Shown here: one piece after another, positions 1 through 40,626 of the stretch
Position numbering within the stretch: the first letter of the stretch is position 1
Layout: each line of letters starts with the position of its first letter
Virus record (IMG/VR): IMGVR_UViG_2737471840_000007
Coordinates: 1 to 40,626 of that record
Length of the DNA: 40,626 nucleotides
From: a virus
Lineage: Duplodnaviria; Heunggongvirae; Uroviricota; Caudoviricetes
Reading direction: 5' to 3' (one strand)
The notes under the pieces: generated by a model
Database searches by the model: none
Seen by the model: the letters and a program-made list of their open reading frames with translations, nothing else
What the model was told of the DNA's origin: nothing
Made by a program: the position numbers and the translations under genes

Positions 1-1248
1 ATGGCACTGAATATTCCATTCAGAAATGCGTACTATCGTTTTGCATCCAGTTACTCATTTCTCTTTTTTATTTCCTGGTCGCTGTGGTGGTCGTTATACG
101 CTATTTGGCTGAAAGGACATCTAGGGTTGACAGGGACGGAATTAGGTACACTTTATTCGGTCAACCAGTTTACCAGCATTCTATTTATGATGTTCTACGG
201 CATCGTTCAGGATAAACTCGGTCTGAAGAAACCGCTCATCTGGTGTATGAGTTTCATCCTGGTCTTGACCGGACCGTTTATGATTTACGTTTATGAACCG
301 TTACTGCAAAGCAATTTTTCTGTAGGTCTAATTCTGGGGGCGCTATTTTTTGGCTTGGGGTATCTGGCGGGATGCGGTTTGCTTGATAGCTTCACCGAAA
401 AAATGGCGCGAAATTTTCATTTCGAATATGGAACAGCGCGCGCCTGGGGATCTTTTGGCTATGCTATTGGCGCGTTCTTTGCCGGCATATTTTTTAGTAT
501 CAGTCCCCATATCAACTTCTGGTTGGTCTCGCTATTTGGCGCTGTATTTATGATGATCAACATGCGTTTTAAAGATAAGGATCACCAGTGCGTAGCGGCA
601 GATGCGGGAGGGGTAAAAAAAGAGGATTTTATCGCAGTTTTCAAGGATCGAAACTTCTGGGTTTTCGTCATATTTATTGTGGGGACGTGGTCTTTCTATA
701 ACATTTTTGATCAACAACTTTTTCCTGTCTTTTATGCAGGTTTATTCGAATCACACGATGTAGGAACGCGCCTGTATGGTTATCTCAACTCATTCCAGGT
801 GGTACTCGAAGCGCTGTGCATGGCGATTATTCCTTTCTTTGTGAATCGGGTAGGGCCAAAAAATGCATTACTTATCGGAGTTGTGATTATGGCGTTGCGT
901 ATCCTTTCCTGCGCGCTGTTCGTTAACCCCTGGATTATTTCATTAGTGAAGTTGTTACATGCCATTGAGGTTCCACTTTGTGTCATATCCGTCTTCAAAT
1001 ACAGCGTGGCAAACTTTGATAAGCGCCTGTCGTCGACGATCTTTCTGATTGGTTTTCAAATTGCCAGTTCGCTTGGGATTGTGCTGCTTTCAACGCCGAC
1101 TGGGATACTCTTTGACCACGCAGGCTACCAGACAGTTTTCTTCGCAATTTCGGGTATTGTCTGCCTGATGTTGCTATTTGGCATTTTCTTCTTGAGTAAA
1201 AAACGCGAGCAAATAGTTATGGAAACGCCTGTACCTTCAGCAATATAG
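1..1248 (+). CDS. cscB: Sucrose:H+ symporter, LacY-family MFS permease
   Basis: 415-aa ORF, 12-TM hydrophobic profile; N-terminus MALNIPFRNAYYRFASSYSF and overall sequence match my recollection of E. coli CscB and align with LacY; not verified by search. Confidence 0.8.
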   Translation: MALNIPFRNAYYRFASSYSFLFFISWSLWWSLYAIWLKGHLGLTGTELGTLYSVNQFTSILFMMFYGIVQDKLGLKKPLIWCMSFILVLTGPFMIYVYEPLLQSNFSVGLILGALFFGLGYLAGCGLLDSFTEKMARNFHFEYGTARAWGSFGYAIGAFFAGIFFSISPHINFWLVSLFGAVFMMINMRFKDKDHQCVAADAGGVKKEDFIAVFKDRNFWVFVIFIVGTWSFYNIFDQQLFPVFYAGLFESHDVGTRLYGYLNSFQVVLEALCMAIIPFFVNRVGPKNALLIGVVIMALRILSCALFVNPWIISLVKLLHAIEVPLCVISVFKYSVANFDKRLSSTIFLIGFQIASSLGIVLLSTPTGILFDHAGYQTVFFAISGIVCLMLLFGIFFLSKKREQIVMETPVPSAI

Positions 1249-1689
1249 ACGTAAACTTTTTCCGGTTGTTGTCGATAGCTCTATATCCCTCAACCGGAAA
1301 ATAATAATAGTAAAATGCTTAGCCCTGCTAATAATCGCCTAATCCAAACGCCTCATTCATGTTCTGGTACAGTCGCTCAAATGTACTTCAGATGCGCGGT
1401 TCGCTGATTTCCAGGACATTGTCGTCATTCAGTGACCTGTCCCGTGTATCACGGTCCTGCGAATTCATCAAGGAATGCATTGCGGAGTGAAGTATCGAGT
1501 CACGCCATATTTCGCTATCAGGATTCTGTGTGATGGTTACATCGCCCGGCCCAGGGCTGTTTAGTCATCAGCGCTTTCTGACAGTGCTGAGATTTCAACC
1601 TGTTGCAGTAAAAATGAGTAGATATAAGGCAAGTGTGCTGCCAAACCCATCTTTTACGGGGTGAAGGTAGATTTCGTTTGAAGGGTATC

Positions 1690-1704
1690 TGGTGTCCCCT
1701 GCAG
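1690..1704 (-). repeat. att core: 15-nt copy of the 3' end of tRNA-Arg (argW), CTGCAGGGGACACCA on the minus strand
   Basis: Minus-strand sequence CTGCAGGGGACACCA equals the acceptor 3' end plus CCA of argW as I recall it; lies 73 nt beyond the excisionase stop at the host/phage boundary. Confidence 0.6.
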
Positions 1705-1777
1705 ACATCTACTTGAAGCGGCAGGGGATTGATTGGAATGGTGTTTTTTAGGTGTGAGAAATATTTTACCCGCTATT

Positions 1778-1978
1778 TTACCCATTGGCGCGGCTTAAGA
1801 GCTTATTTTTGAATTCACAATGGTCACGATATAACCATCTTGCGCGTCCGTGGATAACTTTGGCTTTTGGCAGGTCGCCGGACTTAATCCGGTCATAGAT
1901 GAAGGTTTTACCGAAGCCAGTATCGGCCATGATGAATTTCAAATCAACCAGGGAATCAGGCTGTAGTTCGTGTTGCAT
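1778..1978 (-). CDS. torI: Excisionase / recombination directionality factor, TorI-like (AlpA/Xis winged-helix family)
   Basis: 66-aa ORF MQHELQPDSLVDLKFIMADTGFGKTFIYDRIKSGDLPKAK... matches my recollection of E. coli TorI (KplE1/CPS-53 prophage at argW); GGAG 8-9 nt upstream of ATG. Confidence 0.75.
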   Translation of the reverse strand: MQHELQPDSLVDLKFIMADTGFGKTFIYDRIKSGDLPKAKVIHGRARWLYRDHCEFKNKLLSRANG

Positions 1979-2020: not shown

Positions 2021-2050
2021 AATAAAAAACCGCCATCAGGCGTTTTTGTG
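2021..2050. terminator. Bidirectional intrinsic terminator-like hairpin (AAAAAACCGCCATCAGGCGTTTTTG)
   Basis: Short GC stem CGCC/GGCG flanked by A-tract upstream and T-tract downstream on both strands. Confidence 0.5.
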
Positions 2051-2203
2051 TTCTTTCAGTTCTTCAATTCGAATATTGGTTACGTCTGCATGTGCTATCT
2101 GCGCCCATATCATCCAGTGGTTATAGCAGTCGTTGATGTCCTCTGCTTCGATAACTCTGTTGAATGGCTCTCCATTCCATTCACCTGTGACTCGGAAGTG
2201 CAT
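2036..2203 (-). CDS. Small hypothetical protein (55 aa)
   Basis: ORF MHFRVTGEWNGEPFNRVIEAEDINDCYNHW... with GGAG 7 nt upstream; below ORF-track size cutoff; sits between two terminator hairpins so expression is uncertain. Confidence 0.3.
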   Translation of the reverse strand: MHFRVTGEWNGEPFNRVIEAEDINDCYNHWMIWAQIAHADVTNIRIEELKEHKNA

Positions 2204-2212
2204 TTATCATCT

Positions 2213-2241
2213 CCATAAAACAAAACTCGCCGTAGCGAGTT
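2213..2241 (-). terminator. Intrinsic terminator downstream of the 94-aa early gene
   Basis: Perfect 7-bp stem AACTCGC/GCGAGTT with 4-nt loop followed on the minus strand by TTGTTTTAT. Confidence 0.45.
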
Positions 2242-2274
2242 CAGATAAAAGAAATCCCCGCGAGTGCGAGGATG

Positions 2275-2559
2275 TTATTCATTGCCGATATTCACCTTTA
2301 TCGCGAACACCTTTACCGGTTTATCACCGAAGTGCGGATGTGTGATTGTCTTGATTTCATAGCCGCCATACGGAACGTCAATTCTGCGGCTGGAATCGTC
2401 ACGCTTCGGATATCCCTTTGTGATAATCAGGCGGTCATACTCCCGGAACATAATTCGCTTATTCCAATAGTCATTACACAGGCGATACTCTTCCGTTTTC
2501 TCTCCTCGAATCATGGCATCGAAGTATTCACCTTTGACGGCAAGTTGTAGGTTAGCCAC
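2275..2559 (-). CDS. Hypothetical phage early protein (94 aa)
   Basis: ORF in the early-left operon, 8-nt overlap with upstream gene. Confidence 0.55.
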   Translation of the reverse strand: MANLQLAVKGEYFDAMIRGEKTEEYRLCNDYWNKRIMFREYDRLIITKGYPKRDDSSRRIDVPYGGYEIKTITHPHFGDKPVKVFAIKVNIGNE

Positions 2560-2839
2560 GACCTTCCTCCTTTGGCTTGTGAATTTGTATCGTCATGCCG
2601 CTTTGAGTGGTGACTACAATGACAGAACCAGGCTGAAGGCTGTTAAGATTGAATGCTTCGTAAAACGAATCCAAGGCCAGCGCTTTTTTATTCTTTCGGT
2701 TCCACCAACGCCATCCCTTGCTACAGGCTACACTGACAATCCACTGTCCACTCCTGTAAGCCATATAAAACCAGATGAGCAAAACCTGAAGGAAGGCTAT
2801 CCAGTCAATAATCGTATATTTCGCGAAGGAGTCCATCAC
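2552..2839 (-). CDS. Hypothetical membrane protein (95 aa)
   Basis: ORF with hydrophobic N-terminal segment IIDWIAFLQVLLIWFYMAY; overlaps neighbouring genes in operon fashion. Confidence 0.5.
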   Translation of the reverse strand: MMDSFAKYTIIDWIAFLQVLLIWFYMAYRSGQWIVSVACSKGWRWWNRKNKKALALDSFYEAFNLNSLQPGSVIVVTTQSGMTIQIHKPKEEGRG

Positions 2840-3747
2840 TTCACCTCCTGCGGCGGTTCTGGTAGCGGCATCCAGTGTGTGACATTGCTAATCAGACCAT
2901 ATTCATTAGTTTGAGGATGGTTGCCGTTATCGTCTCCGTATTTAAGACTCTCCATAAAGCCATAATGCCTATCACCATTAACGCTCACAAAGCCGTAATA
3001 AGCAGGTATAACGCCGATCTCACACGTAACCAGTAAAGGAAAACTAGTTCTCCAATTTAGCTCGCCGATTACAGGCATTCGCTCACTACAGCTTATCCAG
3101 CCATCCGGAGTTACCGGATAGTTGCCCGATAGCGCATTACGCAATCGCTCCAGCTTCACGTATTCCTGAACCCTGTTTCCGTCGCATGCCTGAAGCCATT
3201 GCGCAGCCTTTTGCGCATCAGTGTGAAAGGCACAAGTGCGACCGTCATCAAATTGCATTTCGTAGAGGTCAGCAACTTGTTCAAACTGCGTATGTTGTGA
3301 CTTGTAAGTTTGGCTTACAGGTTCGGCACCATGAAGCATGGCGTCGCTCCGCTCTATGCCATCCAGCGCGATTCGCAGTGCCTGAATTGTGGTAGAGCTA
3401 TCGTTTGGGGCTATTCCATATCTCTCGAATACAGCTAAATGGTTGCGCATAATCTCAGGCGTAAGCTCTTTGTAAGCATAAGCAAGAGGCTCTGATGCAT
3501 TATCCGGCACAACCGACGCAGGCGCGGCAGCATAAACAGGAATAACGTCCGCTTGCTCTTTATTGCTTTCATCCGTTAAAGCCCAGAATAATTTCCCGGC
3601 CGGATGTTTGAAAATATAAGCAACTGGATCTGCTTCCAGCGATGCCAGCGCAATTCGTGCCAGTTCCATTTGTTCGCCACGGGTAAGCCCGTTTTCAAGC
3701 GTGGATTTAATGAACAATTCGATACGTTCTTTAGTGATAGCGCTCAT
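2836..3747 (-). CDS. DUF551-domain phage protein
   Basis: C-terminal HWMPLPEPP motif typical of DUF551; start placed at the internal ATG (MSAITKERIELF) preceded by AAGGAG and 1 nt after the upstream stop; ORF track extends to 3789. Confidence 0.65.
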   Translation of the reverse strand: MSAITKERIELFIKSTLENGLTRGEQMELARIALASLEADPVAYIFKHPAGKLFWALTDESNKEQADVIPVYAAAPASVVPDNASEPLAYAYKELTPEIMRNHLAVFERYGIAPNDSSTTIQALRIALDGIERSDAMLHGAEPVSQTYKSQHTQFEQVADLYEMQFDDGRTCAFHTDAQKAAQWLQACDGNRVQEYVKLERLRNALSGNYPVTPDGWISCSERMPVIGELNWRTSFPLLVTCEIGVIPAYYGFVSVNGDRHYGFMESLKYGDDNGNHPQTNEYGLISNVTHWMPLPEPPQEVK

Positions 3748-3748
3748 A

Positions 3749-4249
3749 TCACTCTCCTTTGATGCGAATGCCAGTAGCGCGGATTGCATCGATGACTTCA
3801 GAAACTTTGTATGCCATTACCGTTTGGTAATCCTCGTGGAAATCTGTTCGATGAAGCATGCTGCTACGTTCTGGGAGCGATATTTCCCGTGCTTCCAGTT
3901 CTGCAATGCGCTTCTCTGCGGCTTCCAGCTCAACACGCAGTTTCCCTACCGTTAGCGCAATATCCTCGTTCTCCTGGTCGCGGGATTTGATGTATTGCTG
4001 GTTTCTTTCCCGTTCATCCAGCAGCGCCTGCACTACTTCAGGGTTGAAAGCTGCGATATAGCGAGCGTTGTTCTCTGCGTTTTTCTGTTCGTCGAATCCA
4101 GGCCAGTCGACAATATCTCCGTGATGATTATCTCCTGGCGTGTGCACGGCGTACGTGCCGTATTTGCCCGGCGAAATAAATGCGACCCATTCGCCTTGTG
4201 TTGCCTGTTTTGCTATCTCACGCAGTGCCTGATAGTTAATCTCGCTCAC
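3749..4249 (-). CDS. Ead/Ea22-like family protein
   Basis: N-terminus [21 protein letters not shown] typical of lambdoid Ea22-like proteins; coiled-coil C-terminus. Confidence 0.65.
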   Translation of the reverse strand: MSEINYQALREIAKQATQGEWVAFISPGKYGTYAVHTPGDNHHGDIVDWPGFDEQKNAENNARYIAAFNPEVVQALLDERERNQQYIKSRDQENEDIALTVGKLRVELEAAEKRIAELEAREISLPERSSMLHRTDFHEDYQTVMAYKVSEVIDAIRATGIRIKGE

Positions 4250-4761
4250 TGGTTGCCTCCTTTGCGAAGTTTCGCGGCAAAATCAGCCGCAACCTCTTTG
4301 ACCATATTGGAAAGCGGAGTGCCACCTCCGAATTTTTCTGAGAACATCTCCACGCCCTGTGCCCGCAGTTCCGACAGGAAAGAGTCGGTGGCTGGGGTTT
4401 CGATATCGTTAATTTCAGGAAGAATCTCTTCCCATGTGGCGATATCGCCATTCAAATGCCATCCGGCAATTCCACTGGAGTTATCCGCAACACTGCGAAC
4501 GGCTTCAATAGTTTCGAGCATTACCGCATTCTCCGCCGCAAGCGCCGAAAACTTCTCGTGTGCCAACTTAACAGCTGCATCAGCCTGCTTAATTGACTCA
4601 ATCGCTCTCTGCTGGTCTTCGGACAGAGCCGAAATCTTGGCCTCCGCTTCAGCAAATTTACGCACCAGATATTCAGCGTTTGTTTCGTTAACCTTTAAAT
4701 CTCGTGGGATGCATTTACCTTTCAGAAATCCATCCATCTCAATTAGTGACATTTGTTTCAT
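4246..4761 (-). CDS. Hypothetical phage protein (171 aa)
   Basis: ORF with ATGA start/stop overlap with the downstream gene. Confidence 0.55.
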
Positions 4762-4922
4762 TTCTTCCCACTCCGCAACATCGCATTCAGATATTTGTTT
4801 TGATTTACTGACGGAAAAGAATTTCTCTTAAGTAATTCCTCTCTCGATGGCATTGGCTTTACGCGTTGGCGAATAATCATTTCTGCCGGAAGAATGCCGG
4901 GATTGTATGCAAGTCCTCTCAT
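4758..4922 (-). CDS. Small hypothetical protein (54 aa)
   Basis: [24 protein letters not shown]... whose TGA overlaps the ATG of the next gene (ATGA); below ORF-track cutoff. Confidence 0.35.
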
Positions 4923-4938
4923 GGTAAATTCCTCTTTG

Positions 4939-5253
4939 TTAATTTATTCGTATGCCTGCTCTTTCTTCATCGAGTTTTTTTAGTTTGTACCGCATAGCTC
5001 TTACTGAATAAATTGAGCGGCAGGTTGCAATTGCTATTTCTTCTGCGGAGAACTTACCGAAAAGTGATACTTCGGCTCTTGTCCATCGTCTTCCACGAAG
5101 TCGGCTAACAATGTCAGCGCCAATCCTTGTTGCTTTCGCCATTACTGCTTTTTCAGTCCTTTCCAGTTTTTCAGCGATAACTTCAACTGGCATTGTCGCC
5201 GCTACTTCGCGCAAGAAATCGACTTCCCATTTCTCCCATGGAGTCTTTTTCAT
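4939..5253 (-). CDS. Hypothetical phage protein (104 aa)
   Basis: ORF in early operon; basic C-terminus. Confidence 0.5.
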
Positions 5254-5264
5254 AGTCGATACCG

Positions 5265-5753
5265 TTATTTGATAAGAAGTGAAGGTTTCCCAACTTTGAG
5301 TTGAGCGCCGGGGATATTTATTCCTGCTTTTAGTTGGTGTTTGATTGCCAGTTTGTCGGCTTTAATTGTCGTTTCAAACTCAACGTATTCAGGAGGAATG
5401 GCGCTTGAGTCGATGATTTCTACAATTTCTGACGGTTTGCGGATTGTTACCTGGTGAATACCTGCTCGAATATTTTTCTTGCCAACCATTTCAAGCGATG
5501 ACGCTATATATGATTTGATGCTGTCAATCTTATTTTGAATTACTGCGGCTCGCTCATTCAGCGACTTTGCCTCTTCCTTGAGGCGTTCAGCATAACCAGA
5601 TTCATTTTTAATGACGGAAAGAAGTTGCTCTATTTTATCGGTAAATTCTCCTTCCATGCCTTCTATTGTGTCAGCAATCATCTCTGGTTCTAAATCTGAA
5701 TCCATCAATTTTGCGTATTCATTGGCAATTTCATACAGTTTGCTCACTGGCAA
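5265..5753 (-). CDS. Gp157-like phage protein (Sipho_Gp157 family), coiled-coil
   Basis: 162-aa acidic coiled-coil protein immediately downstream of recT, the usual context for Gp157-family proteins; family assignment from memory. Confidence 0.45.
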   Translation of the reverse strand: MPVSKLYEIANEYAKLMDSDLEPEMIADTIEGMEGEFTDKIEQLLSVIKNESGYAERLKEEAKSLNERAAVIQNKIDSIKSYIASSLEMVGKKNIRAGIHQVTIRKPSEIVEIIDSSAIPPEYVEFETTIKADKLAIKHQLKAGINIPGAQLKVGKPSLLIK

Positions 5754-6642
5754 CCTCCAGTTTCGCTTTGCATTCTGCGTAAATGGCTTGTACGTTCTGC
5801 TGCAATTTCATTCCAGATGTCAGGCGATATGCTTCTGCAAAATATCGCTTCAAATCATCCATGTTTTCTGCCTGAGCCATTTCATCACAAAGAAGTTGTG
5901 CTTTATCCGTTATTTCCTGCTGGCGTTTCCGTTCATCTTCGCGGATATCTTCCTCTGATTTGTGCGGCATAACTGGTTCAGTCCACACACCTTCTTCTTC
6001 GTTTAGTACGTGAATAGCACTATCAAGACGTGATGCCTTAGGCCAATACTTGCTTGCACGCTTTACGACCGTCTTTCGCGCCATCTCATTCCAGTGATTT
6101 ACCCATGGTCCTTTATCGCTGAAGGCCGCCTTGCTTGTTTTCCTTACAGCCTCAATTTCAGCCAGACTCATCTCTTCCGTTAGATAATCACCTGCTGGCG
6201 TCTTAACTGTGCAGTAAACGCCAACGATATCACCACGATCACCGAAGGCGTTGTATTTATGGGTTGGTGCTTTATCAAGCCCGTTTGACTCATAGGTATC
6301 GTTAGCATGAACAAGTTTTGCCTGACCCCATGAGATAACACCAGACTCCATTGCAATATGGAGCAATCCCATATAACTGATATCAAGGCACACCATGCCG
6401 TCGCGCGGAACCAGATAAGCCAGTTTGCTGGCCGGGTTTAAGGTGATGCCGATCGCCGCAACATTGATGATGGCGTTCTGTGCGCTGGTTGGGTTTGCCA
6501 GTGCTGTTTTAGCCAGGTAATCATTTTTCTGGAAATACTGAATTGCAAACTGGCTTTCCTTAGCCCATGTCACCGTCTGTTCAGTCAATGCTCCGCAGAA
6601 TAACTGCTCCTGCTGTTTAACGAATTCAACGATATTGCTCAT
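5731..6642 (-). CDS. recT: RecT-family single-strand annealing recombinase
   Basis: 303-aa ORF; motif GPWVNHWNEMARKTVVKR closely parallels Rac RecT GPWVTHWEEMAKKTAIRR. Confidence 0.85.
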   Translation of the reverse strand: MSNIVEFVKQQEQLFCGALTEQTVTWAKESQFAIQYFQKNDYLAKTALANPTSAQNAIINVAAIGITLNPASKLAYLVPRDGMVCLDISYMGLLHIAMESGVISWGQAKLVHANDTYESNGLDKAPTHKYNAFGDRGDIVGVYCTVKTPAGDYLTEEMSLAEIEAVRKTSKAAFSDKGPWVNHWNEMARKTVVKRASKYWPKASRLDSAIHVLNEEEGVWTEPVMPHKSEEDIREDERKRQQEITDKAQLLCDEMAQAENMDDLKRYFAEAYRLTSGMKLQQNVQAIYAECKAKLEVASEQTV

Positions 6643-6950
6643 GCTGCTTCTCCATAAATGTGTCTGCGTTTGAATATTGCGAATGCATATTCAGCCTTAA
6701 CTCTTTCGGTTATTGCATCCCAGAACCATTCAGCGGCTTTTTCCTGATAGTTACAGTCATCATCTTCCAGCCAGTCGATAGCGTCCTTAGTGTGTTCATC
6801 TGGTTTATATGAGCGAAGCATTTCGCTTATTGGGTCGCAACGTTTGCAGAGACGATCAACTTCACTGTTGATTCGTTCGTAATCTTCATCAGTAAAACTT
6901 GCGATTATTTGCGATATTTCACGCTTATCATTCAGAGTCAGAATCATCAT
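6639..6950 (-). CDS. Hypothetical phage protein (103 aa)
   Basis: ORF with AGGAGA SD; ATGA overlap with recT. Confidence 0.55.
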   Translation of the reverse strand: MMILTLNDKREISQIIASFTDEDYERINSEVDRLCKRCDPISEMLRSYKPDEHTKDAIDWLEDDDCNYQEKAAEWFWDAITERVKAEYAFAIFKRRHIYGEAA

Positions 6951-7035
6951 CTTTCTCCTGTTCTTTGTGCTGATTGAGCATTTTGTTCATCTGACGAATG
7001 AATTCTTCGTCTGACCAGTTATCTGTAAAACTCAT
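6928..7035 (-). CDS. Small acidic hypothetical protein (35 aa)
   Basis: ORF MSFTDNWSDEEFIRQMNKML...; ATGA overlap with the upstream kil-like ORF; below cutoff. Confidence 0.3.
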   Translation of the reverse strand: MSFTDNWSDEEFIRQMNKMLNQHKEQEKDDDSDSE

Positions 7036-7184
7036 TTCCTGCGATACCACGGAAGGTTGATAGCTGATTTCATCGCTTTATTTGCTTCAAGCCACATTTT
7101 GGAATCACCAATAAATCTGGCTATTACTGCTTTGTTCTGTGCAGCACGAAGCATCTGGTGATTAATGGCTATTTCATTGCGCAT
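7032..7184 (-). CDS. kil: Kil-like small protein (lambda Kil family, host division inhibitor)
   Basis: 50-aa ORF MRNEIAINHQMLRAAQNKAVIARFIGDSKMWLEANKAMKSA; central A.FIGD.KM motif and position (after cIII, before recombination genes) match lambda kil as recalled. Confidence 0.45.
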   Translation of the reverse strand: MRNEIAINHQMLRAAQNKAVIARFIGDSKMWLEANKAMKSAINLPWYRRK

Positions 7185-7303
7185 AACGCCTCCAGTTGTT
7201 TCTTTGCTGCTCTGATTAATTGTTTAACTCGGCGTGATAATTCAGATTCGTGCGGGTAGAAAGCGGACATGACGCCGCTACCCGCGAGCTGAAAGTGCAT
7301 CAT
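7169..7303 (-). CDS. cIII: CIII-like small protein (FtsH-inhibitor family)
   Basis: 44-aa ORF MMHFQLAGSGVMSAFYPHESELSRRVKQLIRAAKKQLEAL resembles lambda CIII amphipathic helix region; AAGGAG 6 nt upstream of ATG; the ORF-track 79-aa version extends through two terminator hairpins. Confidence 0.5.
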   Translation of the reverse strand: MMHFQLAGSGVMSAFYPHESELSRRVKQLIRAAKKQLEALCAMK

Positions 7304-7325
7304 GGGTAACTCCTTATATTTGATT

Positions 7326-7393
7326 GCATAACGAAAACGCTTCGAGTGAAGCGTTATTGGTATGCATATAAAAAAGCCCTCACACTGGAGGGC
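7326..7393 (-). terminator. Tandem intrinsic terminators between ral and cIII (tL-like)
   Basis: Hairpin GCCCTC-ACACTG-GAGGGC (7376..7393) followed by TTTTTTATAT, then perfect 8-bp hairpin AACGCTTC-GAGT-GAAGCGTT (7336..7355) followed by TTTTCGTTAT, both on the minus strand. Confidence 0.5.
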
Positions 7394-7529
7394 AAAGAAG
7401 ATTTCCAATAATCAGAACAAGTTGGCTCCTGTTTAGTTACGAGCGACATTGCTCCGTGTATTCACTCGTTGGAATGAATACACAGTGCAGTGTTTATTCT
7501 GTTGTTTGTGCCAAAAATAAAGGCCACTA

Positions 7530-7730
7530 TCAGGCAGCCTTGTTATTCTGTTTACCAAGTTCTCTGGCAATCATTGCCGTTGTTCGTATTGCCCATTTAT
7601 CGACATATTTCCCATTCTCCATTACAGGAAACATTTCTTCAGGCTTAACCATGCATTCCGATTGCAGCTTGCATCCATTGCATCGCTTGAATTGTCCACA
7701 CCATTGATTTTTATCAATAGTCGTAGTCAT
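7530..7730 (-). CDS. ral: Restriction alleviation protein Ral-like (4-Cys small protein)
   Basis: 66-aa ORF with CGQFKRCNGCKLQSEC; size, position left of N and 17-nt overlap with a 28-codon ORF mirror lambda ral/orf28. Confidence 0.6.
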   Translation of the reverse strand: MTTTIDKNQWCGQFKRCNGCKLQSECMVKPEEMFPVMENGKYVDKWAIRTTAMIARELGKQNNKAA

Positions 7731-7800
7731 ACGGATAGTCCTGGTATTGTTCCATCACATCCTGCGGATGCTCTTCGAACTCTTCAAATTCTTCTTCCAT
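7714..7800 (-). CDS. Small acidic protein, lambda orf28-like (28 aa)
   Basis: ORF MEEEFEEFEEHPQDVMEQYQDYPYDYDY with GAGGTG SD 4 nt upstream; overlaps ral start by 17 nt as in lambda. Confidence 0.45.
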   Translation of the reverse strand: MEEEFEEFEEHPQDVMEQYQDYPYDYDY

Positions 7801-7858
7801 ATATCACCTCAAATAAGTGGTTTGCTGCCTAATTTTATTTTCTGGCGACCAACACAAG

Positions 7859-8242
7859 TCACCTTGCTGTCAGTTGTTTTGATTTCCTGTAGCCTGCCGC
7901 GTAAAGAGCTACATTTGGAAGACATACACCAGTTTCTGGTTGCCTATGCCCAAACTCATTCGCGTACACAATGGCCGCTCTCTCCAGATTGCGTCTGTAT
8001 TCTTTCTGTTGCCAGATCACGTCCTGTGCCATGAACTTAATTGGCTTAGCGTCTTCTATGCGCTCAGGCGTTTCGTGAGTACCTTTAGCCTGAATCTGCG
8101 CTCTGCTTAGAGTAGGGCGGTGTAATACTTCTGAACTTATTGCTTCTTCGCGGGCCAGTACGCCGTTAGCTAATGCCTTTGCCTTTAAACGCTCACGACG
8201 ACGAGAACGTGAATTGCCTTTGAACTGAGTTCTGCGTGTCAT
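7859..8242 (-). CDS. N: Antitermination protein N (P22 gp24 / phage 21-type)
   Basis: 127-aa ORF with arginine-rich N-terminus NSRSRRRERLKAKALA and C-terminus LPNVALYAAGYRKSKQLTAR resembling P22 gp24 as recalled. Confidence 0.8.
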   Translation of the reverse strand: MTRRTQFKGNSRSRRRERLKAKALANGVLAREEAISSEVLHRPTLSRAQIQAKGTHETPERIEDAKPIKFMAQDVIWQQKEYRRNLERAAIVYANEFGHRQPETGVCLPNVALYAAGYRKSKQLTAR

Positions 8243-8407
8243 ATAGACCTCCTGATGAACTTTGGTGGTGTGGTAGGTGGGAGACCCATTTCGACCTGTT
8301 TCGGCCTACTTCAATTCGGCAATAGTCCCGCAGGCCTCGCCGCTTTACGTGCGACATATTCCCGTCCATGAACCCTTCACCACACCCCAAAGTTCACTTT
8401 GGTTATT

Positions 8408-8422
8408 GCGCTTTGTCAGCGC
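8408..8422 (-). promoter_or_regulatory. nutL boxB (P22-type hairpin GCGCUGACAAAGCGC on the leftward transcript)
   Basis: Exact 15-nt palindromic hairpin GCGCTGACAAAGCGC in the pL leader upstream of N. Confidence 0.6.
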
Positions 8423-8490
8423 CGTAGATTCATATTCGAATCGTTGTATATTCACCGCCCTGGTGAGTAGTGCGTCCTGCTGATGTGTTT

Positions 8491-8519
8491 AGTATCACCG
8501 CCAGTGGTATTTATGTCAA
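8491..8519 (-). promoter_or_regulatory. pL promoter (-35 TTGACA, -10 GATACT)
   Basis: Minus-strand TTGACATAAATACCACTGGCGGTGATACT identical to lambda pL as recalled. Confidence 0.75.
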
Positions 8520-8553
8520 CACCGCCAGAGATAATTTATCACCGCAGATGGTT
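8493..8553. promoter_or_regulatory. Operators oL1, oL2, oL3 (cI/Cro binding sites)
   Basis: Three 17-bp sites TATCACCGCCAGTGGTA, CAACACCGCCAGAGATA, TATCACCGCAGATGGTT matching lambda oL. Confidence 0.8.
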
Positions 8554-8704
8554 ATCTGTATGTTTTTTATATAGATTTATTTTTTTTGCAGGGGTGTGTG
8601 GCTTGGGAGGTGATCGAGAGATCTGAATTGCGATGTTTAGTGAGTTGTATCTATTAATTTTCAAATAAATACAATTGGTTATGTGTTTTGGGGCGAACGT
8701 TAGG

Positions 8705-8735
8705 CAAAGAAAACCCGGCGCGGTGGCCGGGTTTA
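8705..8735 (-). terminator. Intrinsic terminator at end of the immunity-region transcript (tIMM-like)
   Basis: Stem CCCGGC-GCGGTG-GCCGGG immediately after the 216-aa gene stop, followed on the minus strand by TTTCTTTG; A/T tracts on both sides. Confidence 0.6.
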
Positions 8736-8736
8736 T

Positions 8737-9387
8737 TTATTGCTTAGGAGCTTGTTGTGATGACGATTGGTTAGTTGGAGCGCTCGTTAATGGTTGCTGT
8801 GTCGGTACCTGTATTATAATTGGAGCCGGGCTGGTTACTGATGGTGACTTGTCATTGCCGGAGATAATCCAACTTGAGGCTAACATCACGCCAGACAGAA
8901 TCACAGTAACTAAAGTCAAGCCAACGGCCATCGCCCACTGAGTCGTTGTAAGTCCCGTTTTCAAACCGCCGATTTCACCTTTAATTTCAGCAATACCTCT
9001 CTCAATAGAAGAAAATTGCTGAGTATAATAGGTTTTAAAGTCAGCTGATTCGCGACGCATTTCCGCAGCAATAGACTCTACCTCTGATTTGTTTTGTGAA
9101 AGCTTTGCGTCAAGTTCTTCTCTGGACATTCCGCTCACGCTTACCTCCAGGGTATCACTCTTCATCGCTACATCTTCCTTACTTGGGCGCAAACCCGTTT
9201 CGTCCATGGCGTATGAAACTCTATTTGATACCTTAGCATCAATACCAATACTTTGGTACTGAGATGGATCCCCATAAGGAGAAACGGTTGTCGCTGCTAG
9301 GGTTGCACTAACTATAATACTTGGAAGAACTGATGATGTTGTTCCTGAGGTAGGTTGAACTGAAGAAACTGGCTTCAGTCTTTCCAT
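8737..9387 (-). CDS. Hypothetical tail-anchored membrane protein (coiled-coil, single C-terminal TM helix, P/Q/S-rich tail), rexB-position gene
   Basis: 216-aa ORF; TM segment WAMAVGLTLVTVILSGVMLASSWII; start overlaps upstream gene stop (ATGGAAAGACTGA); alternative internal start at MKSDT (9165) has AAGGAAG SD. Confidence 0.6.
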   Translation of the reverse strand: MERLKPVSSVQPTSGTTSSVLPSIIVSATLAATTVSPYGDPSQYQSIGIDAKVSNRVSYAMDETGLRPSKEDVAMKSDTLEVSVSGMSREELDAKLSQNKSEVESIAAEMRRESADFKTYYTQQFSSIERGIAEIKGEIGGLKTGLTTTQWAMAVGLTLVTVILSGVMLASSWIISGNDKSPSVTSPAPIIIQVPTQQPLTSAPTNQSSSQQAPKQ

Positions 9388-9641
9388 AGCCCATTATCCC
9401 TGAGAGCTACCTGTAATGATTTTACTAATGCAACAGCTTGATCCGGGCTCATTGAGACTGACATGTTAGGGGTCAACTCAACTTTTACTTGGAAGCTATT
9501 ATTTCCTTGCTCATCAGACTGCATGTGATGCTCAAATTCATGGCGGTAAAAAGTAATGATTGTTTCAGCACGATCAGGCGTAATAAGAACTGATGTGGCG
9601 GTCATGTGCTGAGGTATGATTTTAATAGTGTTATCTGACAT
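9375..9641 (-). CDS. Hypothetical small soluble protein (88 aa), rexA-position gene
   Basis: Start placed at internal ATG (MSDNTIKIIPQHM) preceded by AAGGA at 5-nt spacing; ORF track gives a longer TTG/ATG-extended version to 9782. Confidence 0.55.
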   Translation of the reverse strand: MSDNTIKIIPQHMTATSVLITPDRAETIITFYRHEFEHHMQSDEQGNNSFQVKVELTPNMSVSMSPDQAVALVKSLQVALRDNGLWKD

Positions 9642-9833
9642 AAGTATCCTTTTTGTTTCCTTAGTATTTTTTTGCATTGACATCAGAAATAGCGAATCCA
9701 CAAGAGTATGAGTAAAGCTAATCAGTTTAGTGATACGGTGACTATTAAAGTGGTAAACCACATCAAAGCTCGCAGAGTGCATACCAGGCTGTCACACATG
9801 ACAAAGTAACGAGGATGCCTGATCTCATAGCGC

Positions 9834-9989
9834 TCAAAGAGACATGCCGATAATGGCATTAACCACGCATGACGCCATAAACACGCCGCCAACGATGAAG
9901 CTGGCTTGGTTCTTCCTGGTAGCGCCAAGAGTCAACAGAACCACTGAAAGGGCAAAAAAAGGTATCGCGATTATGCTGAACGTGTTCAT
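9834..9989 (-). CDS. Small hydrophobic membrane peptide (51 aa, two predicted TM segments)
   Basis: ORF MNTFSIIAIPFFALSVVLLTLGATRKNQASFIVGGVFMASCVVNAIIGMSL with GAGG 6 nt upstream; first ORF downstream of cI on the same strand; below ORF-track cutoff; an antisense 69-aa plus-strand ORF overlaps it. Confidence 0.4.
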   Translation of the reverse strand: MNTFSIIAIPFFALSVVLLTLGATRKNQASFIVGGVFMASCVVNAIIGMSL

Positions 9990-10066
9990 GTTGACCTCAA
10001 CTTATTTCGATTCTCCATCACCCTTAATCCGCCGCCCCATGTGTTTGTTGTGATCCGTTGCTGGCC

Positions 10067-10783
<717 letters not shown>

Positions 10784-10786
10784 TTA

Positions 10787-10815
10787 AATCTATCACCGCA
10801 AGGGATAAATATCTA
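10787..10815 (-). promoter_or_regulatory. pRM promoter (-35 TAGATA, -10 TAGATT on the minus strand)
   Basis: Matches lambda pRM arrangement; transcript would start at the cI ATG (leaderless). Confidence 0.65.
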
Positions 10816-10854
10816 ACACCGTGCGTGTTGACTATTTTACCTCTAGCGGTGATA
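10791..10854. promoter_or_regulatory. Operators oR3, oR2, oR1
   Basis: TATCACCGCAAGGGATA (10791..10807), TAACACCGTGCGTGTTG (10814..10830), TACCTCTAGCGGTGATA (10838..10854). Confidence 0.85.
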
Positions 10855-10856
10855 AT
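10828..10856 (+). promoter_or_regulatory. pR promoter (-35 TTGACT, -10 GATAAT, 17-bp spacer)
   Basis: Sequence as in lambda pR; followed by AAGGAGGT SD of cro. Confidence 0.8.
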
Positions 10857-10871
10857 GGTTGCATGTACTAA

Positions 10872-11081
<210 letters not shown>

Positions 11082-11088
11082 GTAACAC

Positions 11089-11134
11089 CGCTCTTTTCAC
11101 AATGGACATTCGTCCTACGTCGCTGACAAAGCGA
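11089..11134 (+). promoter_or_regulatory. nutR: boxA-like CGCTCTTTT and boxB hairpin TCGCTGACAAAGCGA
   Basis: boxA-like 11089..11097; boxB 11120..11134 with the same GCUGACAAAGC loop context as nutL. Confidence 0.55.
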
Positions 11135-11218
11135 GCCCCAAGATATCTGACCAACTAAGGCCATATGCGTTTCCACGCATACCTTTCAACTAACTATTCA
11201 CTATTGGAAAATTAACAA

Positions 11219-11515
11219 ATGACACAAGCAAGTTACAGCAAGCCAACACAGCGAGAAATTGATCGCGCAGAAACAGATTTACTCATCAACCTGTCAACGC
11301 TTACCCAGCGCGGTCTGGCAAAGATGATTGGCTGTCATGAATCGAAGATAAGCAGAACGGACTGGAGATTTATTGCTTCGGTCTTGTGTGCTTTCGGAAT
11401 GGCATCAGACATCAGTCCGATTAGCAGGGCTTTTAAGTATGCATTGGATGAAATCACAAAGAAAAAATCCCCGGCTGCCACCGAGGATTTTAAGCAAATT
11501 GATATGCAATTCTGA
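11219..11515 (+). CDS. cII: CII-like transcriptional activator
   Basis: 98-aa ORF; ...ESKISRTDWRF... and C-terminus KKKSPAATEDFKQIDMQF parallel lambda CII (...KSQISRWKRDW..., NKKRPAATERSEQIQMEF). Confidence 0.65.
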   Translation: MTQASYSKPTQREIDRAETDLLINLSTLTQRGLAKMIGCHESKISRTDWRFIASVLCAFGMASDISPISRAFKYALDEITKKKSPAATEDFKQIDMQF

Positions 11516-11547
11516 GGGAATTACTGGATCAATCCACAGGAGTAATT

Positions 11548-11709
11548 ATGACAAAACGTCGTAAGAAATACCAGGAAAAAGAAGAGATTCGACACCCTGA
11601 TTCACCTGAGGGATTAGTGGTAGCCGCAGCAAATAACAGGGCGTTCGCAGAGCGCCTTGTTGGTGTTTACAGACTAGCCAAAGCAGGAGTGAAACATGGG
11701 CGTCGTTAA
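11548..11709 (+). CDS. Small basic hypothetical protein (53 aa)
   Basis: ORF MTKRRKKYQEKEEIRHPDSPEGL... with AGGAGT SD; overlaps O start by 14 nt; below cutoff. Confidence 0.3.
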   Translation: MTKRRKKYQEKEEIRHPDSPEGLVVAAANNRAFAERLVGVYRLAKAGVKHGRR

Positions 11710-13890: not shown

Positions 13891-13916
13891 CCATCTACAT
13901 CACTGAGTTAATAACA

Positions 13917-13946
13917 GGGGCTATTTACACAGTAGCCCTTTTTTAT
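13917..13946 (+). terminator. Intrinsic terminator after the helicase gene (tR2-like)
   Basis: Stem GGGCTA/TAGCCC followed by TTTTTTATT. Confidence 0.5.
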
Positions 13947-13971
13947 TGGATTAAGAACGAGGGGAATCCTG

Positions 13972-25018: not shown

Positions 25019-25032
25019 ATCGCAGGTAAACC

Positions 25033-26253: not shown

Positions 26254-26257
26254 TCCA

Positions 26258-26761: not shown

Positions 26762-26772
26762 GGAACAGACGA

Positions 26773-27755: not shown

Positions 27756-27977
27756 ATGGCAAAAAATAATGCAGTAATACACGTACATACCCCGTTTGTG
27801 CTCACGCTTCCCGACGGTTCGCGGCGCGAGTTTGTTAAAGGCCGTCATGCAGTGGAGGAAGACGTTGCCACGCACTGGTTCACTCGTGCGCACGCGGAAG
27901 TATCCGTTGTCAAAGCCACAGACGCGCGTAACGAGGTAAAAAATGCCAAAGAATCAAAGTCTGCCAGCGGTAAGTGA
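27756..27977 (+). CDS. Hypothetical phage protein (73 aa)
   Basis: ORF in the head-to-tail region of the late operon. Confidence 0.4.
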
Positions 27978-37856: not shown

Positions 37857-38210
37857 ATGCGATACCGTCGCGAAGATACTGAAGGCGATTACACTTTCGG
37901 CCAGGGTGACGATACTTTCCTTATCGACAGTCCGGAATGTGTCGCCCAGGCCGTAAAAACCCGTTTCGAGCTGTGGCGCGGTCAGTGGTTTCTCGATCTG
38001 ACGGAAGGCACGCCGTATGTTCAGTCAGTGCTTGGGAAGCAGCGATCAGATGTCTACATCCTGGCTATACGCGAACGCATACAGGATACACCTGGCGTTC
38101 TGTCGATTCTTTCCTTCGATACCAATTATGACGGCACCAGCCGTCGCGTCACCTTCACTTCCTCCATTGACACAATCTACGGCCAGACGACTGTAACAAG
38201 CGAGGCATAA
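37857..38210 (+). CDS. Baseplate protein (gpW / gp25-like, Mu gp46-position)
   Basis: 117-aa ORF; size and position. Confidence 0.5.
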   Translation: MRYRREDTEGDYTFGQGDDTFLIDSPECVAQAVKTRFELWRGQWFLDLTEGTPYVQSVLGKQRSDVYILAIRERIQDTPGVLSILSFDTNYDGTSRRVTFTSSIDTIYGQTTVTSEA

Positions 38211-39410
38211 ATGGCTTTGAACCTCGACACGCTGGGGCTATCGGCAACGGTAACCGCCCAGGGGATTAGTGCGCCTGATTACCAGACAATCCTAGATACA
38301 CTGACCAGCTATTTCAGGCAGATTTACGGTAGTGATGCCTACCTCGAACCAGACAGCAAAGACGGGCAGATGGTCGCGCTGGTGGCTCTTGCCGTGCATG
38401 ACGCTAACAACACCGCTATCGGGATCTACAACTCTTTTTCACCGACGACAGCGCAGGCCGCAGCGCTTAGCAGCAATGTGAAAATTAACGGGATCACGCG
38501 AAAAGTAGCGACAAACTCTACTGCTGACCTTCTGTTAACCGGTACGGCAGGCACGACTATCACGAATGGCTCCGCACGGGATAAAAACGGCATTATCTGG
38601 AATTTTCCCGCAAGTGTAGCGATCGGCGTTGATGGTACTGTGCTGGTGACGGCCACATGTGCGAATAGCGGTTCGGTTGCGGCGCTGGCCGGGACTATTA
38701 CCACTATCAACACCCCGACCCGAGGTTGGGTGTCGGTAACCAATCCAGTTGCGGCTACTGTCGGTTCACCAGCCGAAACCGACGCAGAGCTGCGCATTCG
38801 GCAGGGGCAAAGCGTCGCGCTACCATCGATCACACCGTTTGAAGGTGTCGACGGTGCTATCGCTAATGTTGCTGGCGTGACACGTCACAAACTATATGAG
38901 AACGACACTGGGGAAACCGACAGCAACGGGCTGCCGCCACACTCTATTTCCGCCATCGTCGATGGAGGGGATGTTACCGAGATAGCCCAGACCATCAGGG
39001 GGAATAAAGGGCAGGGAACCGCAACTTACGGTAAAACTTCTGTCACAGTGCCGGATACTTATGGTAATCCTCACGTCATCAGTTTTTCGCGCTCTACCGA
39101 TGTGCCTATTTTCGTAGCCATTACCCTGAAAGTTTTTACCGGGTATACCTCTCAAATCGGCGAGCAGATCAAACAGGCTGTTGCCGACTATATTAACGGC
39201 CTGACAATTGGCGACGACGTTCTGCTGAGCCGTATTTATTCCCCGGCAAACCTTGGCGTAGTGAGCGGCGGTAATGCCCGATATTACGACATTACCGACC
39301 TGCTGATCGGTAAGTCGTCTGGCAGCGTATCGGCATCAAATATTGATATTGCCTATGATGCTTCGGCGTCCTGTAGCACCGCGAATATCACAATCACGGT
39401 GACCTCATGA
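38211..39410 (+). CDS. Baseplate J-like protein (Mu gp47-position)
   Basis: 399-aa ORF; size and position in conserved baseplate order. Confidence 0.6.
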   Translation: MALNLDTLGLSATVTAQGISAPDYQTILDTLTSYFRQIYGSDAYLEPDSKDGQMVALVALAVHDANNTAIGIYNSFSPTTAQAAALSSNVKINGITRKVATNSTADLLLTGTAGTTITNGSARDKNGIIWNFPASVAIGVDGTVLVTATCANSGSVAALAGTITTINTPTRGWVSVTNPVAATVGSPAETDAELRIRQGQSVALPSITPFEGVDGAIANVAGVTRHKLYENDTGETDSNGLPPHSISAIVDGGDVTEIAQTIRGNKGQGTATYGKTSVTVPDTYGNPHVISFSRSTDVPIFVAITLKVFTGYTSQIGEQIKQAVADYINGLTIGDDVLLSRIYSPANLGVVSGGNARYYDITDLLIGKSSGSVSASNIDIAYDASASCSTANITITVTS

Positions 39411-40087
39411 GCAAATACACCGAACTGATCACTAACTACCACGCTACCAAGCCACTCTTTTTTGACCATATAGATCTGAGCACCCGCCCGCTGATTGATG
39501 TGTCCAGCACTATGTCAGGGCTTGTAACAGCCTTCGATATCGATACGGCGGTTGGCGTGCAACTCGATATCCTCGGCCTGTGGATTGGGCGTAGTCGTAT
39601 AGTCAGCCAGCCAATTAGCGGCGTTTATTTCAGCTGGGACACTGACGGGCTCGGATATGACCAGGGCATCTGGCAAGGGCCATATGATCCTGATTCTGGC
39701 TATACGACGCTGAGTGATGACACCTACCGCATCATTCTGAAAGCGAAAATCGCTATCAACAACTGGGACGGGCGGAACGACTCGCTGCCGCCCATTCTTG
39801 ACGCTGCGACCGCAGGCTCTGGCCTGAAGATGCAAATCGTCGACAACCAGGACATGACGATTTCGGTCTGGGTATTCCCCGAGGCTGATATTTCTGATGT
39901 ATCTCTCGAACTGATAGCTGCTATCAAACAGGGCTATCTCACGGTTAAAGCTGCTGGTGTATGGGCCGGTGATGTTGAAACGCCTTCGATAGAAACACCT
40001 TCCGAGGGCTCTAAATTCTTTGGGTTTGATATGGATAACGAATACATCGGCGGATTCGATGTAGGAGCATGGGGAGTATTACTCTGA
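39407..40087 (+). CDS. Tail protein (Mu gp48-position, gpI-like)
   Basis: 226-aa ORF, ATGA overlap with upstream gene. Confidence 0.5.
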
Positions 40088-40626
40088 TGGCAACAAATAA
40101 CTTTAAAGCGTTCGCGCTTGATCCGAATGCTAACGTCATGTCACAGGCTGACTGGGAAGCGCTTCCGGCGCTGCTGTCTGGCTTTACGGCCGGGAAAGCG
40201 TCCAGCGCCCAGGTAAACAAAGCCATCCGCCAGGCGACCACGATTGCTGCGCTGGTGGGGCAGTTTATTGCGAATTCCGGTGTGGACGCGCTGGATAATG
40301 CTGACGTTAACGGGCTGGTGACAAAGTTCACGAACGCGCTTACCACAAACCTTGGTTTGGGAACGGCATCGAAAAGGAATGTCGGGACGGGGGCAAATCA
40401 GATACCGGACATGTCCGCCTTCGCGTCAGGATCTGGGTATCAAAAACTACCGGGAGGATACATTTTGCAGTGGGGATCTGCGAATGCAGGTAACTCAGCA
40501 TCAACGGGAATATCTAATACGTTCCCAATTCCATTCCCGTCAGGGATTATCATCATTACGACCGGGCAGATTGACCCCTCTTATACTTCAGCACAACAGC
40601 CAGCATCAGTCGGTATTTCGTCGCCC
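40087..40626 (+). CDS. Tail fibre protein, N-terminal part (truncated by window end)
   Basis: Open frame from ATG at 40087 to window end (180 codons, [33 protein letters not shown]...), conserved tail-fibre N-terminal style; not in ORF track because no stop. Confidence 0.65.

Follow-up and report, generated by a model that had tools for sequence, protein, structure and literature searches.

The 40,626-nucleotide (nt) stretch of tailed-phage DNA recorded as IMG/VR entry IMGVR_UViG_2737471840_000007 (positions 1 to 40,626; hereafter the window) places a repressor, operators and lysis genes resembling those of lambda next to the genes of a contractile tail, and this raises the question of whether the window represents one phage, how uncommon such a combination is, and to which class of contractile tail its virion genes belong. 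By sequence, it is an ordinary mosaic Escherichia coli prophage of the lambda family, in which an HK97-type early region is joined to a contractile-tail virion module of the type found in Salmonella phage SEN34. We assign a probability of about 0.9 to the reading that the window from position 1689 onward is one temperate lambdoid prophage, inserted at a KplE1-type attachment (att) site downstream of the host gene cscB and recombined from known modules.

The initial annotation had presented this arrangement as an unusual mosaic with a Mu-like tail. For the comparison, a greedy longest-ORF set of open reading frames (ORFs) was replaced by strand-consistent calls checked against HK97, lambda and the PGAP annotation, and nucleotide identities to lambda, P22 and HK97 were obtained by local blastn. 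The genes follow the lambdoid order pL-N, cI, cro-cII-O-P, nin, Q, S-R-Rz and virion genes, and each module is homologous to lambda, HK97 or P22. None of 40 early-region ORFs contains an internal stop, and the virion ORFs, checked against SEN34, are of similar length. The rarity ascribed to the arrangement is not borne out: HK97 already carries the early combination (98.8% nt identity over 7.5 kilobases, kb), SEN34, SfV and SfIV are known phages, and the prophages of E. coli S1 and E. coli VTB97448v are alike. Comparing the window module by module with lambda, P22 and Mu confirmed that most of the proposed lambda-like segments are real and removed the label Mu-like.

The early region and its predicted lambda-type immunity

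The nucleotide sequence of the early region is 99.4% identical to that of HK97 (Byrnievirus HK97) over 6986-7488 and 98.8% identical over 7798-15299. At the protein level, identity to the HK97 counterparts reaches 100% for kil, cIII, N, gp48, gp49, cI, cro, cII, gp53, O and gp60, and 99% for the DnaB-type helicase, for ninB and for the Dam methylase; oR, nutL and nutR are the same in both. HK97 itself joins, in its early region, the cI, cro and operators of lambda with an N of the H-19B/HK97 type, P22-like boxB hairpins and an O gene followed by a DnaB-type helicase gene. The HK97-type DNA is interrupted by a segment carrying ral (7365-7825), which is 96.8% identical to lambda 33920-34381. Beyond the early genes the two differ: HK97, a siphovirus, has head genes and lambda-like tail genes of its own that do not occur in the window, its Q is a different protein without a match in the window, and it has gp45, roi, an HNH endonuclease gene and rusA where the window has lambda-type ral, ninG, ninH and ninI.

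That cI, cro, oR and oL are near-identical to those of lambda, as proposed initially, holds at the nucleotide level (97.8% over 10071-11095, cI to cro) as well as for the encoded proteins and the operators. Five of the six lambda operator 17-mers (OR3, OR2 and OL1-3) recur unchanged, while OR1 (10838-10854) is one base off the lambda sequence (TACCTCTAGCGGTGATA versus TACCTCTGGCGGTGATA), a change that HK97 carries as well. The repressor, Cro and the operators would place the prophage in the lambda immunity group, and the likeness of its immunity region to lambda is the same likeness that HK97 itself has to lambda. The slot occupied by rexAB in lambda is taken by homologues of HK97 gp48 and gp49, and this position suggests a role in exclusion or defence; neither Pfam nor PADLOC gave a convincing family for the pair, and a PADLOC defence scan of ten candidate accessory proteins including these two returned no convincing match.

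That repressor type does not fix virion type has been known since the comparisons of HK97 with HK022, and also from SfV and SEN34. The initial annotation had warned of the same for typing by immunity, and rightly so, given the lambda-type cI and operators beside a SEN34-type virion module. A prophage that its repressor would type as "lambda/HK97-immune" may encode a contractile-tailed particle, and neither prophage callers nor typing schemes based on immunity or Q should infer the virion type from the control region.

For the antitermination system, the label "P22-type" fits the boxB hairpins and, only in part, the N protein. The nutL boxB (GCGCUGACAAAGCGC) equals that of P22 and folds into a 5-bp stem with a GACAA-containing loop at a free energy (dG) of -8.5 kcal/mol. 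The nutR boxB, which had been given the same sequence, in fact reads UCGCUGACAAAGCGA: it has two mismatches to nutL, the loop is unchanged, the closing pair is a different one with pairing kept, and again a 5-bp stem forms (dG -6.4 kcal/mol). The nutR boxB of P22 is itself a different sequence. A boxA-like CGCTCTT cannot be seen within ~60 nt upstream of the nutL boxB (8423-8480, minus strand), and HK97 presumably has the same arrangement at nutL, because the two are 98.8% identical across 7798-15299. The N protein aligns with P22 gp24 in BLASTP over its last 33 residues (67% identity) and not along its full length, the protein as a whole being of HK97/H-19B type; with lambda N there is a marginal alignment of the arginine-rich motif only. 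This motif, 12-RSRRRER-18, resembles that of P22 by eye and is the one that genetic mapping in H-19B N identified as RNA-binding (PMC3526286).

Replication would rely on O and a DnaB-type helicase in place of P, as had been noticed at the outset: the O gene holds four 18-nt iterons at 12035-12119, and the helicase shows no match to lambda P. The adjoining nin genes were likewise correctly described as lambda-like, with amino acid (aa) identities to lambda of 99% (ninB), 95% (ninE), 87% (ninF), 98% (ninG), 100% (ninH) and 97% (ninI), although for ninE the value lies at 95-98% against each of lambda, P22 and HK97, and ninF is 95% identical to P22. Two genes absent from lambda interrupt the region, namely those for the Dam methylase (99% to HK97) and NinX (45% to P22 NinX). 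The stretches in which the nucleotide identity to lambda reaches 92-98% (cI-cro, ninF-I and S-R) would give substrates for recombination with lambda.

Late control, lysis and the junction with the terminase genes

The Q protein is not that of lambda, in agreement with the initial annotation, and no match was found to the Q of lambda, HK97 or P22. It scores 90 bits on PF06530 (cut-off 26), which is the Q21 family (PMC9388147), and shares 97-99% identity with the Q proteins of HK629, ST64T, BTP1 and others and ~85% with those of the Stx2c phages 2851 and 1717. Phage 21 Q (PDB 6jnx and 6p18) aligns over residues 1-162 and is nearly identical in the first ~100, whereas residues ~103-162 diverge and the window protein measures 172 aa as opposed to 162 aa. 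Phage 21 also shares the position of the gene and the presence of a promoter and a terminator downstream; the two tRNA genes that follow the terminator in the window set it apart from phage 21.

The promoter, TTGACA-18-CATAAT at 17800-17829, scores 11/12 and overlaps the Q stop codon. It is followed by a hairpin at 17838-17876 (dG -20.2 kcal/mol, z -4.1) and then by UUUUUUUAUUU, hairpin and U-run together extending to 17885. A consensus terminator scan between Q and S had returned none, its criteria missing the hairpin that folding later showed. Promoter and hairpin appear to be the pR'/tR' pair expected after Q, and the tRNA genes behind them, a pair that E. coli S1 and VTB97448v carry at the corresponding position, would depend on read-through by Q for any expression. 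Rfam at gathering threshold gave no RNA family besides these two tRNAs.

Just past tRNA-Thr, at 18043, lambda-like DNA resumes and leads into the lysis genes. S and R are indeed lambda-like, as had been claimed for the whole cassette (99% and 98% aa identity), but Rz (19063-19500) is a hybrid: the nucleotide identity to lambda ends at 19311 within the gene and the remainder is HK97/P22-like, and at the protein level Rz is 58% identical to lambda, 97% to HK97 and 90% to P22. An ORF for the Rz1 lipoprotein lies within Rz in the +1 frame. The recombination joint in Rz thus falls inside a gene and not at a gene border. Most other breakpoints do lie at gene borders, consistent with the modular exchange envisaged in the initial annotation: HK97-type identity stops at 15299, the end of ninE, lambda identity stops at 17306, the ninI/Q junction, lambda-like DNA returns behind the tRNA genes, and HK97-like DNA ends at 20756, eight bases into the gene for the terminase small subunit (TerS).

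It is at this last junction that the unity of the window has to be weighed. The early region could be lambdoid and the remainder an unrelated myovirus or tailocin remnant, brought together as two adjacent or decayed elements or as an assembly chimera, and such a view would accommodate the rise in GC content, which is 44-51% across the early and lysis regions and 52-58% across the virion genes, with the step in 20001-24000, the fact that no database record covers the whole window, and the position of the right end outside it. The GC step also fits a separate evolutionary source of the late module. The gene order, however, is that of one canonical late operon, running from Q and pR'/tR' through the lysis genes, TerS and the terminase large subunit (TerL) to head and tail; HK97-like DNA stops exactly at the start of TerS, and neither insertion sequence elements nor broken ORFs were seen in the window. 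Moreover, E. coli S1 has the contiguous architecture as one prophage flanked by host genes, VTB97448v has it at the same cscB site, and the same join of lysis and terminase genes occurs in the sequenced phages SEN34, which was plaque-purified, and vB_EcoM-611R5, as well as in 20 complete E. coli genomes. We regard a composite of separate elements as very improbable and retain the reading of a single recombinant prophage.

The contractile-tail module

Sheath, tube, chaperone, V-like spike, W/gp25-like initiator and Baseplate_J protein, all named in the initial annotation, are present. For each of the 25 virion ORFs SEN34 has a homologue, and the order is unchanged (37-96% aa identity), with gene-for-gene synteny from TerL to the tail fibre and a match to TerS that is partial. 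The head genes as a group are 83-96% identical to those of SEN34 (83-95% for the genes at 22927-27714) and the tail genes 37-83%; sheath, chaperone, plug and spike lie at 47-64%, with 64% for the sheath, 54% for the chaperone and 47% for the spike. The N-terminus of the tail fibre is 65-68% identical to that of SEN34, Omnitron and 611R5. At the nucleotide level, the best phage matches from 20756 on are Citrobacter phage Omnitron (92.5%), the vB_EcoM-611R5 group and Hafnia phage yong1, and SEN34 is among the best for the head genes.

SEN34 was plaque-purified, has a long contractile tail by electron microscopy, was described as genetically lambda-like and morphologically a myovirus, and served as the prototype of the lambda cluster "temperate 26" (PMC5261728); it is now the prototype of the genus Brunovirus. 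It shares with the present prophage the lambda-like regulatory layout and the contractile tail, the latter being predicted in the window from its genes, and differs in its unrelated early region, with another repressor, a loader of the lambda P type and another Q. Identical aligned bases amount to ~12.7 kb of the ~38.9 kb of prophage in the window, or ~33%, as against the ICTV genus threshold, quoted as at least 70% nucleotide similarity over the whole genome, which leaves the prophage outside Brunovirus.

Divergence within the virion module is uneven, and two further observations concern variation among these modules. The tape measure protein differs in length between the window (755 aa) and SEN34 (669 aa). 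For the spike, identity to the homologue does not exceed 67% in any of four related virion modules compared.

The protein families point to a particular structural class. Terminase_2 was the terminase family assigned, and the head proteins fell to Phage_portal_3 (DUF1073), Phage_Mu_F, DUF2213, the cement proteins of XM1 gp53, E217 gp24 and Pam3 gp6, and the major capsid family DUF2184. In the PDB, the sheath matches those of XM1 and Pam3 and the tube that of Pam3; the spike carries the GpV apex motif, and the proteins from spike to wedge match baseplate chains of Pam3, XM1, E217 and phi92. Other matches among solved structures fall to myophages related to these. Family or PDB matches to XM1, Pam3 and E217 extend to cement, sheath, tube, plug, hub, spike, sheath initiator and wedge J, at considerable distance (phmmer E 1e-35 to 1e-6; Pam3 sheath ~27% identical); the hosts of these phages differ, and a lambdoid control region was not seen with them in these searches. 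The virion proteins belong to the XM1/Pam3/E217 structural class, and the sheath, tube and baseplate genes, together with the electron microscopy of SEN34, argue for a contractile-tail morphology.

A further feature is the predicted frameshift in the chaperone gene. The zero-frame gene spans 31467-31892 and contains the slippery run GGGAAATTTTTTG (G GGA AAT TTT TTG) at 31835-31847, from which the -1 frame runs without a stop to ~32080, slightly beyond the start codon of the tape measure gene. Both the run and this open frame recur in five relatives (SEN34, Omnitron, 611R5, S1 and VTB97448v), while the downstream sequence diverges, and the modelled -1 fusion of 204 aa comprises Phage_TAC_15 (PF21822) and DUF6889 (PF21829). 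The frameshifted chaperone of the initial annotation is well supported, and the gene qualifies as one with a slippery site of the lambda G/GT type.

The designation of the tail as Mu-like, as in the lambdoid Shigella phages SfV and SfIV, fared differently. It can draw on a gene set in Mu/P2 order (sheath, tube, frameshifted chaperone, tape measure, hub, spike, W-like and J-like proteins), on the Phage_Mu_F domain in the head morphogenesis protein, on the J protein, which shares PF04865 with Mu gp47 and weakly matches its structure 9ki1 (E 5e-6), and on TerL, whose 28% identity to Mu gp28 over a third of its length is a weak partial match. Yet tblastn of all virion proteins at E 1e-3 found no match in Mu or SfV for any tail protein apart from a fibre fragment. 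A Pfam scan assigned the ten tail proteins of Mu to PF04984/17482, PF10618, PF23746, PF20155, PF07157, PF22255/21683, PF06890, PF07409, PF04865 and PF10076, and nine of the ten differ in family from the window proteins; only PF04865 (Baseplate_J) is common to both, and because this family is common to most contractile tails, its presence does not discriminate a Mu-like tail. Additionally, no homologue of the Mu DNA-circularisation protein gp43 was found, and the nearest solved structures are those of XM1, Pam3, E217 and phi92.

SfV and SfIV do resemble the prophage in combining lambda-style cI/cro/Q/S/R/Rz control with a contractile tail, and are myoviruses by electron microscopy. Their tails, however, are annotated as homologues of Mu L, N, P and gp45-48, for SfV protein by protein as Mu-like and for SfIV as another lambdoid phage with a Mu-like tail, whereas the window proteins match them in a tail-fibre fragment only. 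We hold a Mu-like virion to be highly unlikely and prefer the SEN34-type tail; the prophage does not appear to be one of the lambdoid phages with truly Mu-like tails, and tails of the SEN34/DUF3383-sheath class should not carry the label "Mu-like".

Extent, relatives and predicted working of the prophage

The span of the phage DNA, initially taken as 1-40626, has to be shortened by ~1.7 kb at its left, where 1-1688 consists of host DNA, namely cscB and its downstream spacer. Positions 1-2258 are 99.2% identical to E. coli VTB97448v, in which the counterpart of cscB adjoins cscA, cscK and dsdA and is annotated as an oligosaccharide transporter of the major facilitator superfamily (MFS). The prophage begins with the att core, which agrees at 15 of 16 bases with the KplE1 core, which we take to be CTGCAGGGGACACCAT, and the matches of several phage and E. 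coli records begin exactly at window position 1690, including that of Kapi1 at position 3 of its record. The gene for the TorI-like excisionase comes directly after the core on the phage side; because it lies at the cscB end, the integrase gene can be presumed to lie beyond the window, at the opposite end. The window ends, at 40626, inside the tail-fibre gene.

Among the relatives, the prophage of E. coli S1 comes close: its HK97-type early region is 99.3% identical in nucleotide sequence over 7798-13918, Q, tRNAs and lysis genes are the same, and the virion module is ~92-94% identical, all within a single prophage bounded by host genes. It differs in being integrated between sbcB and dacD and in its other early-left genes. 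In VTB97448v a related prophage occupies the same cscB/att site and agrees in its lambda-type cI, in Q, in the tRNAs and in the type of virion module, but it retains rexAB, and its N, O and helicase differ. Citrobacter phage Omnitron (virion module ~84-94% nt identity) and Escherichia phage vB_EcoM-611R5 (related virion module) both have unrelated early regions. Each of the top E. coli matches to the first 25 kb takes in the replication genes as well as those for TerL and DUF1073, at least 80% of the late half is present in 22 complete genomes, and the junction from lysis genes to terminase is the one noted above for 20 complete E. coli genomes.

Exact combinations without a database counterpart are normal for lambdoid mosaics. 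The combination in the window appears not to be documented elsewhere in the phage and complete E. coli collections searched, because no record in them covers at least 80% of the first 25 kb. It is about an even call whether this recombinant, absent from the searched collections, may be a myovirus that is intact, inducible and lambda-immune. In that case it would put a lambda-style handle (cI/operator control with N and Q switches) on a contractile tail of the XM1/Pam3 class in E. coli, and the break at the start of TerS would be one more case of a recurrent recombination joint. Apart from correct annotation, the importance of the prophage is small.

The missing coverage of the first 25 kb also weighs against the reading of one such prophage, as do two further points: the window stops short of the right end, with the remainder of the tail fibre, the integrase gene and the other att copy outside it; and inducibility and particle production are expectations drawn from homologues.

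From well-studied homologues we infer the following as the most likely working scheme, and it is on close homologues that immunity, morphology, frameshifting and Q-dependent read-through are modelled. Four modules would cooperate: an HK97-type early region with cI, Cro, oL and oR of lambda specificity, an H-19B/HK97-type N acting on P22-like boxB, and replication by O plus DnaB; the lambda-type segments with ral, ninF-I, S and R; a late antiterminator of the Q21 family with its own pR'/tR' and two tRNA genes; and a SEN34-type head and contractile tail of the XM1/Pam3/E217 class. In the lysogen, cI would keep pL and pR shut. After induction, N bound to the boxB hairpins would carry transcription through early terminators, and O would bind the four iterons in its own gene and recruit the phage's own helicase. 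Q would then load at pR' and read through the terminator at 17838-17885, by which tRNAs, lysis genes and virion genes would be expressed as one late operon. A -1 ribosomal slip at GGGAAATTTTTTG would yield the long form of the tail chaperone, and the resulting particle would have an isometric head and a contractile tail.

Table 1. Positions of the features assigned in the window, with the basis of each assignment.
Feature	Position	Strand	Basis
Host cscB, sucrose/oligosaccharide MFS permease (non-phage)	1-1248	+	Locus match to VTB97448v
Attachment-site core, left end of prophage	1689-1704	-	Match to KplE1 core; start of shared matches
TorI-like excisionase (recombination directionality factor)	1778-1978	-	VTB97448v homologue annotated torI; weak Pfam HTH_17
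Early-left accessory and recombination genes	2036-6950	-	Pfam; tblastn to lambda, P22, HK97
kil and cIII	7032-7303	-	100% aa to HK97 kil, cIII
ral	7530-7730	-	98% aa to lambda Ral
N antiterminator, H-19B/HK97 type	7859-8242	-	100% aa to HK97 N, 97.6% to H-19B N; PF25694 N_peptide
nutL boxB hairpin	8408-8422	-	Exact match to P22 nutL boxB
oL1, oL2, oL3 operators	8493-8553		Three 17-mers equal to lambda
HK97 gp48 and gp49 homologues, in lambda rexAB slot	8737-9641	-	100% aa to HK97
cI repressor, lambda immunity type	10067-10780	-	99% aa to lambda cI, 100% to HK97 cI
oR3, oR2, oR1 operators	10791-10854		OR3, OR2 equal to lambda; OR1 with one substitution, equal to HK97
cro	10881-11081	+	98% aa to lambda Cro, 100% to HK97
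nutR: boxA CGCTCTTTT (11089-11097), boxB (11120-11134)	11089-11134	+	Equal to HK97
cII	11219-11515	+	100% aa to HK97 cII, 35% to lambda cII
O-like replication initiator	11696-12517	+	PF04492; 100% aa to HK97, 51% to P22 gp18, 42% to lambda O
DnaB-type replicative helicase	12514-13890	+	PF03796, PF00772; 99% aa to HK97 P, 90% to P22 gp12
nin region: ninB, Dam methylase, ninE, NinX, ninF, ninG, ninH, ninI	14165-17313	+	Lambda, HK97, P22 matches
Q antiterminator, Q21 family	17304-17822	+	PF06530 E 1e-25; PDB 6jnx, 6p18 E 2.6e-91
pR'-like promoter and tR'-like hairpin with U-run	17800-17885	+	Promoter scan; folding
tRNA-Asn (GTT) and tRNA-Thr (TGT)	17886-18041	+	ARAGORN; Rfam RF00005
Lysis cassette: S holin, R endolysin, Rz with embedded Rz1	18283-19500	+	Lambda, HK97, P22 matches
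Small post-lysis genes, including KilA-N/ORF11CD3 protein	19578-20453	+	Pfam KilA-N, ORF11CD3; partial HK97, P22 matches
Terminase small and large subunits	20748-22927	+	TerS PF03592; TerL 96% aa to SEN34, 98% to Omnitron
Head genes: portal, Mu-F-like morphogenesis, DUF2213, cement, major capsid (26773-27714)	22927-27714	+	PF06381, PF04233, PF09979, PF23982/PF22758, PF09950
Connector/neck genes, including DUF4054 and neck/tail terminator	27756-29848	+	PF13262, PF23961; SEN34 order
Tail sheath (DUF3383; 29852-31012) and tube (KPP10_Orf10/DUF3277; 31023-31463)	29852-31463	+	PF11863 E 7e-103; PF11681; phrog_205
Tail assembly chaperone, predicted -1 frameshift, DUF6889 in -1 product	31467-32080	+	PF21822; slippery run
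Tape measure, C-terminal SLT lytic transglycosylase	32070-34337	+	PF01464 residues 589-689; phrog_2276 E 2e-219
Baseplate core: Dit-like, Pam3 gp18-type plug, hub, one unknown protein	34337-36689	+	PF21821, PF22479, weak PF22759; phrog_196 hub
DUF4236 gene, moron-like, inside baseplate cluster	36713-37003	-	PF14020 E 2e-20
Spike (V-like), sheath initiator (W/gp25-like), Baseplate_J wedge, DUF2612 wedge	37215-40087	+	PF18352, PF04865, PF11041; phrog_120
Tail fibre, N-terminal part, cut by window end	40087-40626	+	PF21882 Gp53-like_C

Among the genes of the left arm, those at 2036-6950 comprise lambda orf55-like, DUF4752, DUF551, Ea22, DUF2737, Gp157 and RecT genes. Antisense ORFs in the left arm, for example 3995-4831 on the plus strand and 10740-10985 on the minus strand, were discarded as artefacts of the greedy longest-ORF call. 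In the connector region, the STY1053-family ORF at 27756-27977 encodes 73 aa here as well as in 611R5 and VTB97448v, as opposed to 130 aa in E. coli S1; a truncated pseudogene was considered and ruled out, since the 73-aa form is shared by 611R5 and VTB97448v, and we take the two lengths as natural variants. The DUF4236 gene on the reverse strand within the baseplate cluster is found in E. coli S1 as well.

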